Notes under the pieces: model-generated
What the model was told of the DNA's origin: nothing
The model's database searches: none
What the model saw: the letters and a program-made list of their open reading frames with translations, nothing else
Assembly: GCA_048937405.1 (NCBI GenBank)
Contig: JBHLNF010000007.1
Span: forward strand, 32,001 to 96,000
Reading direction: 5' to 3'
Length of the DNA: 64,000 bases
Source: Promethearchaeota archaeon
GTDB lineage: Archaea > Asgardarchaeota > Lokiarchaeia > Sigyniarchaeales > SOKP01
Program-made: the position numbers and the translations under genes
In this document: positions 13,856-29,681 of the stretch, piece by piece
Position numbering within the stretch: position 1 is the first letter of the stretch
Layout of the letters: the number at the start of each line of letters is the position of its first letter

Positions 13856-13959
13856 CGGGCTATAGGGGAATTGAACCCCTGACCTTTCTTTTTAAGGGAG
13901 AATTTCCCATAAATGTCAGGTTAAAAGCCTGCTGCGCTACCTGCCTGCGCCAATAGCCC
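13856..13959 (-). tRNA. tRNA-Lys(UUU) with a 30-nt intron in the variable region (about 44/45; 13885-13914)
   Basis: Acceptor GGGCTAT/ATAGCCC+G73, D stem GCGC/GCGC, loop CT-TTT-AA, T arm AGGGG-TTCAATT-CCCCT; 30 extra nt forming hairpin TTTATGGGA/TCCCTTAAA; exact splice points uncertain. Confidence 0.88.
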
Positions 13960-15178: not shown

Positions 15179-15279
15179 GCCTCTGTGGCTTAGTGGTATA
15201 GCAACATTCTACATCATCATGATGAAAATGCTAAAGATTCGTAATCTGTAGATCGGGGGTTCGATTCCCCCCAGAGGCT
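15179..15279 (+). tRNA. tRNA-Thr(CGU) with a 29-nt intron at 28/29 (15206-15234)
   Basis: Acceptor GCCTCTG/CAGAGGC+T73; after splicing, stem ACAGA/TCTGT with loop TT-CGT-AA; T arm GGGGG-TTCGATT-CCCCC; BHB central helix AGCA/TGCT with bulges AC^A and AA^A. Confidence 0.93.
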
Positions 15280-15283
15280 TAAA

Positions 15284-16297
15284 CTATACTTCCTCTGTAA
15301 AAACAAATCTTTTTATCATTTGTAGTGCTAGCATTCTAAACGCGTCGTTTATATTTGTCCCTGTTTTTGCAGATGTTTCAATAAAAGAAAGATTTAATTT
15401 TTGCGCGAGAGCTTCTCCTTCTTCAGTTGAAATAACCCGGTTATTTTCCAAATCGATTTTATTTCCAACAAGAATTAGTGATATTTGGGGTGAAACGCTT
15501 TTAATCTCTTTAAACCAATCTTCTAGACTTTCCAAGGTTTCTTTGCGGGTAACATCATATACTAATATTCCCGCTTCCGCATTTGAGAGATATGTTTGCC
15601 TGACCCGTTTGAACTGTGCTTGGCCTGCTAAATCCCAAATTACAAAACGAACTTTTGATCCTAATCCTTGAAAATCACATTCTTTTTTCATTATAGACGT
15701 TCCAATTGTAGATTTGTAATCAGATTGAAATGAATCTTCAACAAAACGATGAACCATGCTCGTTTTACCTACTCCTCCCTCACCACCAAGGATAAGTTTA
15801 AATGCATATTCTCCTGATTGTACCTTTATTTTTTGAAGTTTGTCTACTTTCCTTTCAATATTCTTGGTTTCTTTTTCCGAAACTAATTTAGGAATTACAG
15901 GACTTACAGTTCTCCCATCAAATATTCTCGCAATTTTTTCAGCAGCTAGATAAGCATAAGGAAAAACAGGATCTACCATTGCAACTGAAGTTAAGACTGT
16001 TACAAAAATAGCTTCAGGTCCAGCTTCACAGAATATGAATCTCTGCTCTTCAGTATCGAAGGTTCCTGTTCCAAAAGAACCTGAACTAAATTCTTCTGTG
16101 ATTCTAGTTAAAACAGGTTCTACCAATGCACTAACACCTCCAATAACATCTTCCTCTACCTCAGTATCCGAAATTCCTTTTAAAGCACTCATTACTAAAC
16201 CTTCTCTATTAACTATAAGAGCAGCTATTAAATTTTCACCTATCTCTTGCTTATACCATTTTAATAAAGCTTCAAGTTTTTTCCTATCAACTGACAT
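15284..16297 (-). CDS. Roadblock/LC7 domain fused to a Rab-like small GTPase
   Basis: N-term AALIVNREGLVMSA roadblock; G1 GEGGVGKTS, G2 TIG, G3 WDLAGQ, G4 NKID, G5 ETSAK; no C-terminal Cys. Confidence 0.93.
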   Translation of the reverse strand: MSVDRKKLEALLKWYKQEIGENLIAALIVNREGLVMSALKGISDTEVEEDVIGGVSALVEPVLTRITEEFSSGSFGTGTFDTEEQRFIFCEAGPEAIFVTVLTSVAMVDPVFPYAYLAAEKIARIFDGRTVSPVIPKLVSEKETKNIERKVDKLQKIKVQSGEYAFKLILGGEGGVGKTSMVHRFVEDSFQSDYKSTIGTSIMKKECDFQGLGSKVRFVIWDLAGQAQFKRVRQTYLSNAEAGILVYDVTRKETLESLEDWFKEIKSVSPQISLILVGNKIDLENNRVISTEEGEALAQKLNLSFIETSAKTGTNINDAFRMLALQMIKRFVFTEEV

Positions 16298-16566
16298 GGA
16301 TTCAATAACATTTGTTATTTCTTTGCAACTCTAATATAAAATATACTAAATATATTTTTATATAGTAGGTTTGTTATTAAAATTTATAGAAAAAGATAGA
16401 TCTTAAGAAAACACGAATTAAAAATTCAAATTTAAAAAGATAAGATAGCTTTAGTTAAGAAATTAAGGATTTAAATGATAGTAAAATTTTAAAATATTAA
16501 AAATTTCTATTTATCAATTAAACTCTCTAAAATAATCATTATAAGAGGGAAATATTTAAGGAACAA

Positions 16567-16773
16567 GCAGGGGTAGCCAAGATTCTAGAATAAATCATCT
16601 AGAACTTTACTAGATTACCTCTAGTAGACTAGAATGGAAATTTGGTCTACGGTGCTAGAATATACCGTGATTGTACGTTTATGGTGAAACTGAGGCTCTA
16701 GTGACATAGGTCTTCGTGGGTTCGAAAATCGACGTAGGTTATACGAATTCGATAGAAAATCCCACCTCCTGCA
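16567..16773 (+). tRNA. tRNA-Leu(GAG) with introns at 15/16 (16582-16640, probably two nested), about 30/31 (16659-16688) and 59/60 (16727-16759)
   Basis: Acceptor GCAGGGG/CTCCTGC+A73; removing 122 nt leaves an 85-nt class II tRNA (GCCAAG-TTTGGTCTAC-GGT, CTAGA-CTGAGGC-TCTAG, long V arm, GTGGG-TTCGAAT-CCCAC); BHB-like motif at each junction. Confidence 0.9.
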
Positions 16774-16951: not shown

Positions 16952-19900
16952 TTAAAAAAAATCAGAAAGCTTATGCTGCTTTAATTTTGGATTATTCGTC
17001 AAACTTTCTACGTATTCCTCTATTAATACCATTCTTTGTTTTGTATAATCATCTAAATTAAAATTATCGCATAAATCCAATGCACGAGGTATATATTTTT
17101 CAATCCCTCCACGATTCACTGTTAAAATAACCCGATTTCCACATTTAGGACATTTTCCACCGTTGGATAATGGAGGGCGCCTAAATTTTTCATTACATTT
17201 AACACATCGAAATCCTTGAACTGAAAATTTTCTTAAATTTCCCAGAATATCAGGATTAAAATGGGTGGTTAATATCTTTTCAGCAACCTTTTTTGCATTA
17301 ACAGCTTTTATAATTCTGGCTAGGTGAATTTGGGCATCAATTTTATCATCCATAGTTTCATATAATTTATACGCAGATGTTATTGGCCCTTCATTAATAT
17401 TATCAGTTGGAATATTAAATCCAATATTTTCATATTGATTTGGTGTTCCTAAATGACTTTTAACAAGTTCCATTATATTTTCAATTTCAGAAGGAGAACA
17501 ATATCTTTCTGTAGCTTTATAAAACTCTAATGGATATTTCTGCAATGTATCAATATTGTGAGCTTCGATATCAATCTCATTAGGGTCAATTTTAGTGCCA
17601 ATTACCAAAGTTGCATCCATCCTCCCCCCAATTTTACTTGGAAGATAATGTCTAGAAAAATTCAACAGGGGATCTAAGAGTAGCATTACGCCATCTTCAT
17701 CCCCATCACAGTTTCTTCTCTTTGCAGCATGCCAAAAAGGATGGGCATATATAGATCTAGCAGGAGTAAAACCTATTATTCTACCCACTATTCCTGCACT
17801 AGTATGAGGCGCTAACCCTACAACTAAATGTCCTATTAAATCATTTCTATCTGATACATTATAAAAAGGTTTCATATGATAGAATAATTCTAATTCATCA
17901 TCCAGAAACTTAGCTATTTTAATAAAATATTCTGCACAATCATCGGAGAGAATAATATCTTGTACTTTTAACTCTAGAATCTGATTATCATCCTTAAGGA
18001 GATTCCCTTTAATATCTTTATCATACCCTAATGTCTTTATTGTATTTATAGATGTTCCAATTTCTTTTGGTTTAAAATGGGTTAATGGTATATCAGTAGC
18101 ATCATATCTTATTTCTGCAGTTTTATAGACTAATACTTCATTTTTTGCTCTTAAAATACCTTTCTCAATTGGTTCAGGAACTTTATACTCATTCGTTAAT
18201 CCAATAATTCCTTTTAATCTATCAGGTAATTGTACATTAAGATTTTCCAAAACTTGATTAATTTGTTCTTTTATATTAAATTTTGCCTCATTAGAAGTTT
18301 TAAGAATACTATTACATTTTTGGCAATAGGTTTCATACGTAGGGTATAGAATTTTACATTGTGAACAAATTTTTTGCAGCTCAGTATGAGTTCCACAACT
18401 AGGGCAAATATTAAAAATAGTTGATTTTCCACAATTTGGGCATTTTTTTCTGCATACTTCAATTCTAATTTTCCCTGATTTTACCACATTTTCTTTATTT
18501 CCAATATTAAATGATTTCCCTTTTTTAGATTCTAATTCAATTTCATTTTCCTTTTTACCATTATATTCCATTGCTTTTTCAAATAATCTTGTACTCCCAA
18601 CAGCATTACTTAAAGGAAAAAGTGCATGAATTCCTTTCATACTTTTCTTCTCTGATTTTTCAGGACGTCCCATTCTTGAACCCATAAAATAAGGGGCTTT
18701 ATTTTTAATTTTGAATGATGAAACCAGATAAAAATAGTTAAATACATCATCAACATTTTCTATTTTCTTAGCATCCTTATCTTTTAAATTAAAAATAGTT
18801 TTATATATAAGATTCATACTTTTACTAAAAGTAATTTTGTTTTCTTTTATTTTATGGGGAATAAATGCTTTTTCAAGAATTTTTTTAATTGGTTCCTCAT
18901 TTTCTAAGATAATTAGTTGTTCTAATTCAGAAAAACTCTTAATAAATGCTTTTCGTAGTGTTACTAACTCTGCTACTGTTAGATTCCCCCAAAAATCTAA
19001 ATAATAAGGATGGAGGGGAATATCATATTTTTTTGAAATTTTAATGGTTTCTTGGGCCGTAGGAATGTTTTTAAAAGGATTTTTTATCAATTTTTTAAGC
19101 TTTTCGTCAATAATCTCCTCCTTATTAAGAGAATTCTCCAATTCTAATGCCCACCATTCTTCTACATATCCAGAAGGGATTAATATATGATTATTTTCAG
19201 TAAATTCTCCATAACTAAATAGCAAATCGCCTAAGAATAATATTTCCTCAACTTCTTGGAAAACGGCTTTAGCTTTTTTAACACTTAAGATTTTTATTAC
19301 ATTACCATTTTTTAGTTTTATAATTGGACCCGCAATATAATTTACTGGACATATACTTGTGCTTTTCCCAGGACGTTCAATTCTCAATTGTGTACCAATT
19401 GCAACGAATTCATCTAATAAAGCCATTGTTGCAGGATGCATTCCTCCTGCAGCTAAACCTGTATCTCTAGATCGACCATATCTTATCCTATGCCCTCCGA
19501 TTTCAGACGGGTTACTAAACACTGGTCGTCCGGCGATAATATCTGCAATATATTTAGAATTAGGAGCGATTTTAATTTCTTTTTGCTTATTTACTTGTTT
19601 TTTTTCCTTTTTGGTTTCTTGGTTTTGAGCTATTTTTTTTAAATCAGCTAACCAATCCCAGCCTTCTAAGTTCATGCTATTAGCTATCTTAAGCAATTTT
19701 GGTGCCTTAAGTAAAATACCATCATTTAAAACTAAGCAAGCACCGCCTCGTATTTTATTTGTTTCAATCCTAGGTAAATCTCTAAAAGCTGAAACTTCTT
19801 CGTCCTCAGTTGAATCACCATTTATTTCTACAGGTAACTTACTGACAGCATATCGAATTTCTTTAGTAGATGAAGGGTATTGCAAATGCACTCTTCTATC

Positions 19901-20464
19901 ATATAATTTTACTTCTTCAACATACCTACCAATCTCCCCCTCAGTTGCTTCATATTTGGGAAGATTTGATTTCTTTCTAACATAATCTGCTATTAATACA
20001 CATAATGCCGTAGTTGTACCTCCTGCAGCTCTAATTGGTCCAGCAAAATATAATGATAAATATTTTTTTCCAAAATTATCTTTCCGGATTAAAATCTTAG
20101 AAATACCTTCAAGTGGAGCACTAACAACTCCCATCGTTTTAATAGCTAATCCTACTCTAATAGCTCGGTCCACTCGAGCTTCTAATGATTCAATATTTCC
20201 AATATTTTTATCTAATATATCACCAACTACTTTAAAAATTAGTTCATCTTCGGTTAAGCCATCTTTTTTTAAACCTCTTATTACTTTTGCTACACCTTTT
20301 GGTCCTACTAACTTCTCTACCCTTCCTGCTAAATCTTTTGCTTGAGGTGATTCCACTTCTAATTCAGGATCTAATCCTTTCTGACGTGCTCTTTCTGCAA
20401 TAGAATAACACTCATCTACTTGCTTTTGAATCTGATTAAAGTACAATTCCATCGTTTTACTCAT
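16952..20464 (-). CDS. polC: DNA polymerase D large subunit DP2
   Basis: FAGPIRAAGGT, RIRYGRSRDTG, HAAKRRNCDGDED catalytic motif, Zn fingers; no intein. Confidence 0.98.
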   Translation of the reverse strand: MSKTMELYFNQIQKQVDECYSIAERARQKGLDPELEVESPQAKDLAGRVEKLVGPKGVAKVIRGLKKDGLTEDELIFKVVGDILDKNIGNIESLEARVDRAIRVGLAIKTMGVVSAPLEGISKILIRKDNFGKKYLSLYFAGPIRAAGGTTTALCVLIADYVRKKSNLPKYEATEGEIGRYVEEVKLYDRRVHLQYPSSTKEIRYAVSKLPVEINGDSTEDEEVSAFRDLPRIETNKIRGGACLVLNDGILLKAPKLLKIANSMNLEGWDWLADLKKIAQNQETKKEKKQVNKQKEIKIAPNSKYIADIIAGRPVFSNPSEIGGHRIRYGRSRDTGLAAGGMHPATMALLDEFVAIGTQLRIERPGKSTSICPVNYIAGPIIKLKNGNVIKILSVKKAKAVFQEVEEILFLGDLLFSYGEFTENNHILIPSGYVEEWWALELENSLNKEEIIDEKLKKLIKNPFKNIPTAQETIKISKKYDIPLHPYYLDFWGNLTVAELVTLRKAFIKSFSELEQLIILENEEPIKKILEKAFIPHKIKENKITFSKSMNLIYKTIFNLKDKDAKKIENVDDVFNYFYLVSSFKIKNKAPYFMGSRMGRPEKSEKKSMKGIHALFPLSNAVGSTRLFEKAMEYNGKKENEIELESKKGKSFNIGNKENVVKSGKIRIEVCRKKCPNCGKSTIFNICPSCGTHTELQKICSQCKILYPTYETYCQKCNSILKTSNEAKFNIKEQINQVLENLNVQLPDRLKGIIGLTNEYKVPEPIEKGILRAKNEVLVYKTAEIRYDATDIPLTHFKPKEIGTSINTIKTLGYDKDIKGNLLKDDNQILELKVQDIILSDDCAEYFIKIAKFLDDELELFYHMKPFYNVSDRNDLIGHLVVGLAPHTSAGIVGRIIGFTPARSIYAHPFWHAAKRRNCDGDEDGVMLLLDPLLNFSRHYLPSKIGGRMDATLVIGTKIDPNEIDIEAHNIDTLQKYPLEFYKATERYCSPSEIENIMELVKSHLGTPNQYENIGFNIPTDNINEGPITSAYKLYETMDDKIDAQIHLARIIKAVNAKKVAEKILTTHFNPDILGNLRKFSVQGFRCVKCNEKFRRPPLSNGGKCPKCGNRVILTVNRGGIEKYIPRALDLCDNFNLDDYTKQRMVLIEEYVESLTNNPKLKQHKLSDFF

Positions 20465-28208: not shown

Positions 28209-29681
28209 TTAACCTTTCACTACTCCAATAGGAATAAGTCTTACCACTTTTTCTACAATCCCAAGATCATGACTTACTTGAACAACTTGATCTATATCCT
28301 TGTAAGCACCAGGAGCCTCTTCAGCAATAACTTTCATCGTAGCAGCTCGAACCATAATACCTTTTTTGCTTAGATCATCTTTAACTCGATCTCCCCAATA
28401 TTTCTTTGTTGCTTTGGATCTCGACATTACCCTCCCTGAACCATGAGCTGTCGAACCAAAAGAAAGATCCATTGCATTTTGCTTACCTACACATAGATAC
28501 GAGGCAGAACCCATAGTCCCCGGGATTAAAACTGGTTGTCCTATTGATTTATAATCATTCGATAAAGCAGGATGTTCAGGAGGAAAAGCTCTAGTTGCCC
28601 CTTTTCTATGAACATTCAATTTCATCTTCTTTCCATTTACTTTGTGTTCTTCTATTTTTAATATATTATGGCACACTCCATATATCAAATGCAAATCTAA
28701 TTCATCAATATCCTTTTTGAACGTATTTTGAAAGGATTCTCTTAACCAATGAGTAATAAGTTGACGATTTGTAAACCCAAAATTTGCAGCACAACCCATT
28801 TGTTTCAAATAATTCTGGGCTTCTGGTGTATCAGCAGGTACACAAGCTAACTCTCTATCAGGTACTTTAATATTATATTTTTTCATTGCTTGTTCGATAT
28901 TGCGTAATGAATCAGTACATACTTGATGACCAAGAGCTCTACTCCCTGTATGTATCATAACTGTAATTTTGTCTTTTCCATTTATACCTAACGTTTTGGC
29001 AATACTTTCATTGTATATTTTGTCAACCTTTTGAATTTCCAAAAAATGATTCCCACTCCCCAATGATCCTAGTTGTTTAATAGCTCGCTGCTTTGCTTTT
29101 TGTGAAACTAAACTTGCATCCACATCTTTTAAACATCCATTCTCCTCTAAATGTTTAAGATCTTCTTCAATGGCATAGTCGTTTTCTATTGCCCAGTTCA
29201 CACCATTATTTAGGACAGTATCTAAGTCAGAGTAACTTATACTAAGTTTACCTTTCGACCCTAATCCTGAAGGGATATTAGTAAAAATAGTATCTAAGAG
29301 ATTTGGCAAGACCCCCTTAATATCAGTAAGAGATAAATTTGATCTCAATAATCTTACTCCACAATTAATATCATATCCTACACCACCCGGAGAGATCATT
29401 CCATTCTCTGCATCTGTCCCCGCAACACCCCCAATACAAAATCCATATCCTTGATGAGCATCCGAAAGAGCTATCGCATGCTTCTCTATCCCGGGTAAAC
29501 AAGCAACATTGCATATTTGATCTAATGTACGATCTAATCGAATTTTTTCCAATATATATTCATTCGCATAAATTTTTACTGGAACCCTCATCTCAAATTT
29601 CTCAATATTCCCTTTAATCCTTGCCATTAAGGTTTTTGGAGGAATCTCGTAGACATTGTCTGCTATTTTAGTAACATTCAT
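28209..29681 (-). CDS. rtcB: tRNA-splicing ligase RtcB
   Basis: DAHQGYGF, GYDINCG, GSGNHF, HTGSR, HRKGAT, TAHGSGR, EEAPGAYK. Confidence 0.98.
   Translation of the reverse strand: MNVTKIADNVYEIPPKTLMARIKGNIEKFEMRVPVKIYANEYILEKIRLDRTLDQICNVACLPGIEKHAIALSDAHQGYGFCIGGVAGTDAENGMISPGGVGYDINCGVRLLRSNLSLTDIKGVLPNLLDTIFTNIPSGLGSKGKLSISYSDLDTVLNNGVNWAIENDYAIEEDLKHLEENGCLKDVDASLVSQKAKQRAIKQLGSLGSGNHFLEIQKVDKIYNESIAKTLGINGKDKITVMIHTGSRALGHQVCTDSLRNIEQAMKKYNIKVPDRELACVPADTPEAQNYLKQMGCAANFGFTNRQLITHWLRESFQNTFKKDIDELDLHLIYGVCHNILKIEEHKVNGKKMKLNVHRKGATRAFPPEHPALSNDYKSIGQPVLIPGTMGSASYLCVGKQNAMDLSFGSTAHGSGRVMSRSKATKKYWGDRVKDDLSKKGIMVRAATMKVIAEEAPGAYKDIDQVVQVSHDLGIVEKVVRLIPIGVVKG

Follow-up and report, generated by a model that had tools for sequence, protein, structure and literature searches.

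The stretch of DNA analysed here, hereafter the window, comprises 64,000 nt from a Loki-type Asgard archaeon with a genome of 4.47 Mb and about 28% G+C. On its plus strand, at positions 16567-16773, lies a class II tRNA gene that was read from the sequence and whose pieces are parted by AT-rich inserts at three sites. These inserts measure 59, 30 and 33 nt, which together account for 122 of the 207 nt of the gene. The map of exons and inserts was obtained by scanning for bulge-helix-bulge (BHB) motifs and by comparison with orthologous genes, and it comprises the following features:

16538-16545, plus strand: TATA-like box ATTATAAG, some 25 nt ahead of the 5' end of the tRNA; a putative promoter, read from the sequence.
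16567-16773, plus strand: tRNA-Leu(GAG) gene, 207 nt, ending at discriminator A73, with CCA incompletely encoded.
16567-16581, plus strand: exon 1, tRNA positions 1-15 (acceptor 5' strand, D-stem 5' strand, A14 and G15).
16582-16640, plus strand: D-loop insert after G15, 59 nt.
16582-16604, plus strand: 5' part (23 nt) of the outer D-loop intron, consisting of the base A followed by the hairpin TTCTAGA, 8-nt loop, TCTAGAA; its last 6 nt contribute to the inner motif, as helix strand and bulge on the 5' side.
16605-16634, plus strand: candidate inner intron, 30 nt, with a 9-bp hairpin, CTAG (3' strand of the central helix) and AA of the 3' bulge; HBh' type.
16635-16640, plus strand: 3' part (6 nt, TGGAAA) of the outer D-loop intron, in which TGGA forms three of four pairs with exon GCCA and AA stands in the 3' bulge.
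16641-16658, plus strand: exon 2, positions 16-30 (rest of the D-loop, D-stem 3' strand, position 26, anticodon stem 27-30).
16659-16688, plus strand: anticodon-stem intron 30/31, 30 nt, with helix TGCT/GGTG (four of four pairs, three of them G-U); the register 31/32 yields an identical product.
16689-16726, plus strand: exon 3 (position 31, GAG anticodon loop, anticodon stem 3' strand, long variable arm, T-stem 5' strand and T-loop to position 59).
16727-16759, plus strand: T-loop intron 59/60, 33 nt, with helix TTCG/AGAA (three of four pairs) and outer and inner helices of 5 bp each; its register slides by up to 2 nt within an A run.
16760-16773, plus strand: exon 4 (T-loop position 60, T-stem 3' strand, acceptor 3' strand and discriminator A).

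The four exons join into an 85-nt molecule which ARAGORN identified as tRNA-Leu(gag) with a complete class II cloverleaf, and which matches the compact orthologues L009 and L016. No match was obtained with ARAGORN or Rfam for the unspliced gene, and no second Leu(GAG) gene was found in this genome. The initial annotation of this DNA was right as to the tRNA-Leu gene, its GAG anticodon, its three interruption sites and the count of 122 intronic nucleotides. We regard it as solid that this is a tRNA gene interrupted at three sites and that its D-loop insert is built of two units.

Directly upstream of the tRNA, a Ras-type GTPase is encoded on the minus strand (window 15284-16297). Its 337 aa include, at the C-terminus, a small GTPase domain of the Ras/Roc family (PF00071, E 5e-51), and such GTPases are typical 'eukaryotic signature' proteins of Asgard archaea. 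The downstream gene encodes the PolD large subunit DP2 (window 16952-20464, minus strand) here and in one relative (G044), and an M28 peptidase on the other strand in most other relatives (L023-L030 compared). This difference suggests a rearrangement breakpoint just after the tRNA. No homing-endonuclease gene was found within about 1.5 kb of the tRNA, either here or in the relatives inspected. The genome encodes two proteins with an EndA domain (PF01974, 103 and 71 bits), at C27:74089-74313 and C8:5162-5410, and an RtcB RNA ligase (PF01139, 565 bits), the latter at window 28212-29519 on the minus strand, 11 kb from the tRNA; RtcB would be expected to seal the tRNA halves left by EndA cleavage. 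Two more tRNA genes of the window, at 13856-13959 (minus strand) and 15179-15279 (plus strand), each carry one insert of about 29-30 nt, and there are thus three interrupted tRNA genes within 3 kb. By decomposition, the second of these is a tRNA-Thr(CGT) whose 29-nt intron begins at position 28.

Across the genome, only 20 tRNAs scored above the Rfam cut-off. A scan anchored on the acceptor and T-arms returned 29 tRNA-like genes longer than 93 nt, tRNA-Leu(GAG) included, against six of 93 nt or less. Heuristic decomposition restored the cloverleaf of 21 other tRNA genes and predicted 36 introns in them, whose median length is 30 nt; 28 fall between 25 and 35 nt, and the longest reaches 53 nt. 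The same heuristic left eight genes unsolved and produced a spurious 34+25 split of the 59-nt insert. Given this median, the 59-nt insert corresponds to two standard units, and the agreement of both unit sizes (30 and 29 nt) with the other introns, pointed out in the initial annotation, holds at the level of the genome. Multiply interrupted tRNA genes were also seen outside the window. A tRNA-Ile(TAT) gene (C7:817831-818010, minus strand) carries a 53-nt intron at the canonical site besides two separate introns, of 30 and 23 nt, in the D-loop, and a 191-nt Leu-type gene (C29:53067-53257, minus strand), for which automatic decomposition gave no solution, contains by eye introns of about 31, 47 and 30 nt.

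Orthologous tRNA-Leu(GAG) genes were found in 23 of 24 sampled genomes of the genus, at a syntenic locus. Each of the three inserts is missing from at least one orthologue at this locus, which fixes the exon boundaries independently of the splice motifs. Specifically, the 30/31 intron is absent from L016, L018, L020 and L030, and the T-loop intron from L009, L024 and others. Among the orthologues compared (L001-L030), each gene has one to three insertion sites, and at least six intron positions are occupied in this one gene within one genus: three in the D-arm (about 13/14, 15/16 and 21/22), one in the anticodon stem (30/31), one in the variable arm/T-stem and one in the T-loop. So many positions with varying content within a single genus suggest a very fast turnover of introns.

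Within the 59-nt D-loop insert, CTAG at 16599-16602 pairs with CTAG at 16629-16632 (four of four pairs) and is flanked by the bulges AA^C and AA^T. The inner stem comprises 9 bp (16606-16614 with 16620-16628, one G-U) and is the longest inner stem among all BHB candidates that the scan returned for the gene. A motif with four of four pairs and a stem of at least 9 bp arose in one of 5000 dinucleotide shuffles of the insert, and one with a stem of at least 7 bp in 0.5% of them. The initial annotation had placed a splice motif at precisely these positions, and it proved to be both conserved and better than expected by chance. The resulting inner unit (16605-16634) sits between the 5' part (16582-16604) and the 3' part (16635-16640) of an outer unit. 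Without the inner 30 nt, the remaining 29 nt fold into a 7-bp hairpin, TTCTAGA/TCTAGAA, that abuts the helix GCCA/TGGA. The initial annotation had described this remainder as a clean 29-nt intron. The hairpin abutting the helix and the bulges AG^A and AA^T stood up to scrutiny, but the helix GCCA/TGGA has only three of four pairs, its G10-A mismatch being invariant across all orthologues. The unspliced RNA, too, can adopt the outer motif, since in it TTCTAG (16583-16588) can pair with CTAGAA (16629-16634), followed by TGGA; the inner helix of the outer unit then has 6 bp, compared with 7 bp after excision of the inner unit.

The anticodon-stem motif has, besides its fully paired central helix, an outer helix of 3 bp and an inner helix of 3 bp. 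The hallmarks of EndA-type introns (a 4-bp helix, two 3-nt bulges and at least one flanking helix) were found in this gene, with two of the four units presenting relaxed motifs. Neither the outer unit of the D-loop insert, with its helix of three of four pairs, nor the inner unit has an exon-side helix, and both are classed as relaxed on that score. Relaxed BHB criteria are very permissive, as they return hundreds of candidates in this single gene, and a recent preprint (10.64898/2026.10.13.758758) agrees on this point.

The composite D-loop insert (59-61 nt) is present in 10 of the 54 genomes of the genus. Further full copies were found in a genome of a neighbouring genus (G073) and on a metagenome contig (L154). 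At least 12 full-length copies thus retain the internal motif, 11 from genomes of two genera and the twelfth from the metagenome contig. The latter was the one new copy provided by 17-nt pattern searches of genome and metagenome contigs, among whose listed matches most were due to chance. L152, considered as a copy of the insert, was such a chance match. Another composite copy, in G021, is interrupted by an assembly gap of Ns; the gap explains its partial match, and its interpretation as a shorter form of the insert was rejected. All carriers of the composite insert have the exon variant GCAGGGGTA, and non-carriers have GCAGGAGTT. Since the variant is common to all carriers, the simplest reading is that the insert would have originated once, at the base of a clade. 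Relatives with only the 29-nt outer intron, for which the initial annotation had proposed to look, did not turn up: the 29-nt unit alone was absent from the orthologues of the genus and from 134 genomes of the family, the search being for the exact pattern, which diverged forms could escape.

In an alignment of ten species (A1), the inner central helix (columns 33-36 with 65-68) showed pairing in every cell (100%); for the inner stem the figure was 86.7%, with two compensatory pairs. The direct outer stem (columns 17-22 with 65-70) was paired in 98.3% of cells, and the post-excision hairpin abutting TGGA (columns 17-23 with 32-38) in 98.6%. All three copies of CTAGAA are kept, both hairpin loops are variable and indels are confined to the inner loop. 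The middle copy (16598-16604), which has no role in a one-step removal of the insert, is invariant in nine of the ten species. Mismatches occur in the post-excision hairpin of G066 and in the direct stem of G053 and L154, and these exceptions balance out. Since CTAG is palindromic and CTAGAA is present three times, the three alternative pairings cannot be separated by covariation.

Folding models were built with ViennaRNA with the acceptor stem enforced, and the cost of each motif was taken from the ensemble free energy with versus without that motif enforced. In the primary transcript, the inner motif cost 3.3 kcal/mol here (0.5-7.2 in ten orthologues) and the direct outer motif 7.6 kcal/mol (4.7-12.7 in ten orthologues), the inner motif being the cheaper in nine of the ten. 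The cost of the outer motif was 1.4 kcal/mol following excision of the inner unit (0.5-3.0 in all ten orthologues), and 0.7 kcal/mol once the other two introns were also removed, where it was the minimum-energy fold. In terms of predicted populations, the direct motif was about 1000-fold rarer than the inner motif in the transcript of this genome, and the outer motif about 10^4-fold more populated following inner excision, although part of this gain is generic since a shorter intron interior nearly always cheapens the closing helix. The models therefore favour removal in two steps with the inner unit first, the order advanced in the initial annotation.

The best explanation of these observations is a functional, single-copy tRNA-Leu(GAG) gene with BHB introns of about 30 nt at three sites, whose D-loop insert is a two-unit composite. 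As for how this insert is removed, conservation and folding models lead us to lean, with modest confidence, towards a two-step splicing of an intron within an intron. In the primary transcript, CTAG at 16629-16632 would pair with CTAG at 16599-16602 and stack on the 9-bp inner hairpin, giving an HBh'-type motif. The inner unit of 30 nt would interrupt the 29-nt outer unit in the 3' strand of its stem, and the join left by its removal would set the 3' strand of the outer hairpin directly against TGGA. The outer motif would then form, with the helix CCA/TGG, the bulges AG^A and AA^T and the 7-bp hairpin, and a second round of cutting and joining would remove the outer unit. The 30/31 and T-loop introns would be removed independently, and direct removal of all 59 nt in one step might serve as a minor or parallel route. 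The availability and conservation of a direct one-step outer motif mean that ordered splicing is not forced, and nesting is accordingly plausible but not required. The initial annotation had counted four introns, one of them nested; the two-unit architecture of the insert was upheld, but its nesting was not shown to be necessary, since the direct outer motif is equally well conserved.

A more far-reaching version of this reading, which we advance tentatively and hold to be somewhat short of probable, is that the inner unit was acquired separately, as a mobile BHB micro-intron that entered an older D-loop micro-intron, with an obligatory order of inner before outer removal. The insert would then be a 'tRNA twintron' shared by at least 12 Asgard species. 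Among the family genomes covered, neither a relative with only the 29-nt unit nor a free-standing paralogue of either unit was found, which is why separate acquisition stays a proposal.

On the other hand, the 59 nt might form a single intron with two hairpins, removed in one step through the direct outer motif (CCA/TGG plus the 6-bp stem 16583-16588/16629-16634), with the internal motif as a by-product of three palindromic CTAGAA words. This is a possibility to be taken seriously, albeit a doubtful one. The near-complete pairing of the direct stem across ten species speaks for it, as do the permissiveness of relaxed BHB criteria and the existence of longer single introns in this genome, such as that of 53 nt at the canonical site of tRNA-Ile(TAT); the want of any relative with the 29-nt unit alone likewise makes the 59 nt appear to act as one evolutionary unit. 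Yet such a route needs neither the middle copy of CTAGAA nor the first hairpin, both of which are conserved, and it leaves the invariance of that middle copy unexplained while the adjacent loop varies freely. Moreover, it would have to proceed through the motif predicted to be the far rarer and, in nine of ten orthologues, the costlier of the two. Cleavage at the relaxed outer motif would also imply that the inner motif, being more canonical, should be cut whenever it forms.

It is improbable, in our view, that the insert is a two-hairpin repeat element, either a tandem duplication of an ancestral hairpin intron or the remnant of a small mobile element, with a structure that serves folding, stability or a role of the excised RNA instead of ordered splicing. 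The outer and inner units do resemble each other weakly (19 identical positions, z 3.2), two visibly similar hairpin units make up the D-loop insert of another Leu-type tRNA gene of this genome, and the D-arm intron of a sister clade appears to be a copy of the 30/31 intron of the same gene. However, an origin by duplication is compatible with nested splicing and no substitute for it; the insert has no C/D-box motifs as read from its letters, no match in Rfam and no paralogue elsewhere in the genome. Finally, a decaying or non-functional gene copy whose D-loop insert is never removed would account for standard finders missing the gene, but is scarcely credible for the only Leu(GAG) gene found, with exons nearly invariant across species while introns vary, conserved splice motifs and a syntenic locus.

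With regard to the origin of the units, searches with blastn-short for a paralogue or donor of either one gave only chance-level matches in the genome itself, and none was found in the family. The initial annotation had likened the words that fill the introns to the anticodon stem of the tRNA; this likeness is one of words of 5-8 nt only. In the sister clade (L011-L015, L017; G009, G011, G017, G003, G006, G007), a 30-nt intron lies in the D-arm at about 13/14 and is identical at 22-28 of 30 nt to the 30/31 intron of its own gene (z 4.4-8.3), with some species-specific variants common to both copies. This likeness suggests that the gene copied one of its introns or underwent internal gene conversion. 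No general route of such copying was found in the preprint 10.64898/2026.10.13.758758. The Leu-type gene of this genome with the two similar hairpin units lies outside the window (C16:73710-73885, plus strand), measures 176 nt and shows by eye TAA in its anticodon loop. The two hairpin units of its D-loop insert of about 63 nt share a TTTACAC loop and include a candidate sub-intron of 32 nt with a helix of four of four pairs; as judged from its letters, this gene may hold a second composite or nested intron.

The concept of an intron within an intron, the inner of which is removed first, is familiar from the twintrons of Euglena chloroplast genes, where group II or III introns lie inside other introns. 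Those are self-splicing ribozymes of hundreds of bases, whereas the units described here measure 29-30 nt and would be spliced by protein enzymes. Closer parallels exist among archaeal tRNAs. Nested and ordered removal of tRNA introns is known in some archaea, according to papers (PMC3728597, PMC3978253) that cite Sugahara et al. 2007 (RNA 13:671) and Tocchini-Valentini et al. 2009 (PNAS 106:20246). As these citing papers present them, the nested pre-tRNAs of Crenarchaeota/Thermoproteales resemble ours in carrying several EndA-type introns; formation of the last intron's motif reportedly has to await removal of the others, so that splicing is ordered. The gene described here differs from these accounts in belonging to an Asgard lineage and in that its inner unit physically interrupts the sequence of another intron, both lying at one D-loop site. 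It further differs in that its outer motif can form directly, so that modelling favours an order that is not forced. In addition, it has four units, compared with a published maximum of three introns per tRNA in Thermoproteales (PMC4033280). The figure of three, which the initial annotation took as the usual upper limit for archaeal tRNAs, is valid for that order but has been overtaken in Asgard archaea by a report of as many as five intervening sequences in one gene (10.64898/2026.10.13.758758). Related intron sequences at different tRNA positions, as observed in the sister clade, recall the intron transposition of Thermoproteales (Fujishima et al. 2010, as cited in PMC4033280); compared with what is cited there, the copying seen here took place, by its appearance, within one gene, and no donor was found for the composite insert.

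Two censuses of Asgard tRNA genes, one from 2024 (PMC11291895) and one by Goswami et al. 2026 (10.64898/2026.10.13.758758), describe the same setting: Asgard hosts in which most tRNA genes are interrupted (92-95% of them bear introns according to PMC11291895), many at non-canonical sites, with introns gained and lost repeatedly among close relatives and D-arm inserts often missed by standard finders. Each extra stretch is treated in them as one intervening sequence, with a median of 22-23 nt, and the composite insert would be counted once; the word 'nested' is absent from the preprint. We thus place the gene as an Asgard case of a known class, that of nested pre-tRNAs with multiple introns, and it sets no record for intron number.

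Current ideas are not overturned by this case, as nested, ordered tRNA splicing and more than three introns per tRNA gene have already been published. Nevertheless, censuses that count extra stretches undercount composites of this kind, and standard tRNA finders miss the gene altogether. If the two-step splicing of the D-loop insert is confirmed, introns of about 30 nt would be able to accumulate by insertion into, or duplication within, existing introns, and the maturation of tRNAs in these organisms could need an ordered series of cuts. Should the inner unit indeed prove to be a separately acquired twintron, micro-introns could colonise any RNA that presents the motif, other introns included.
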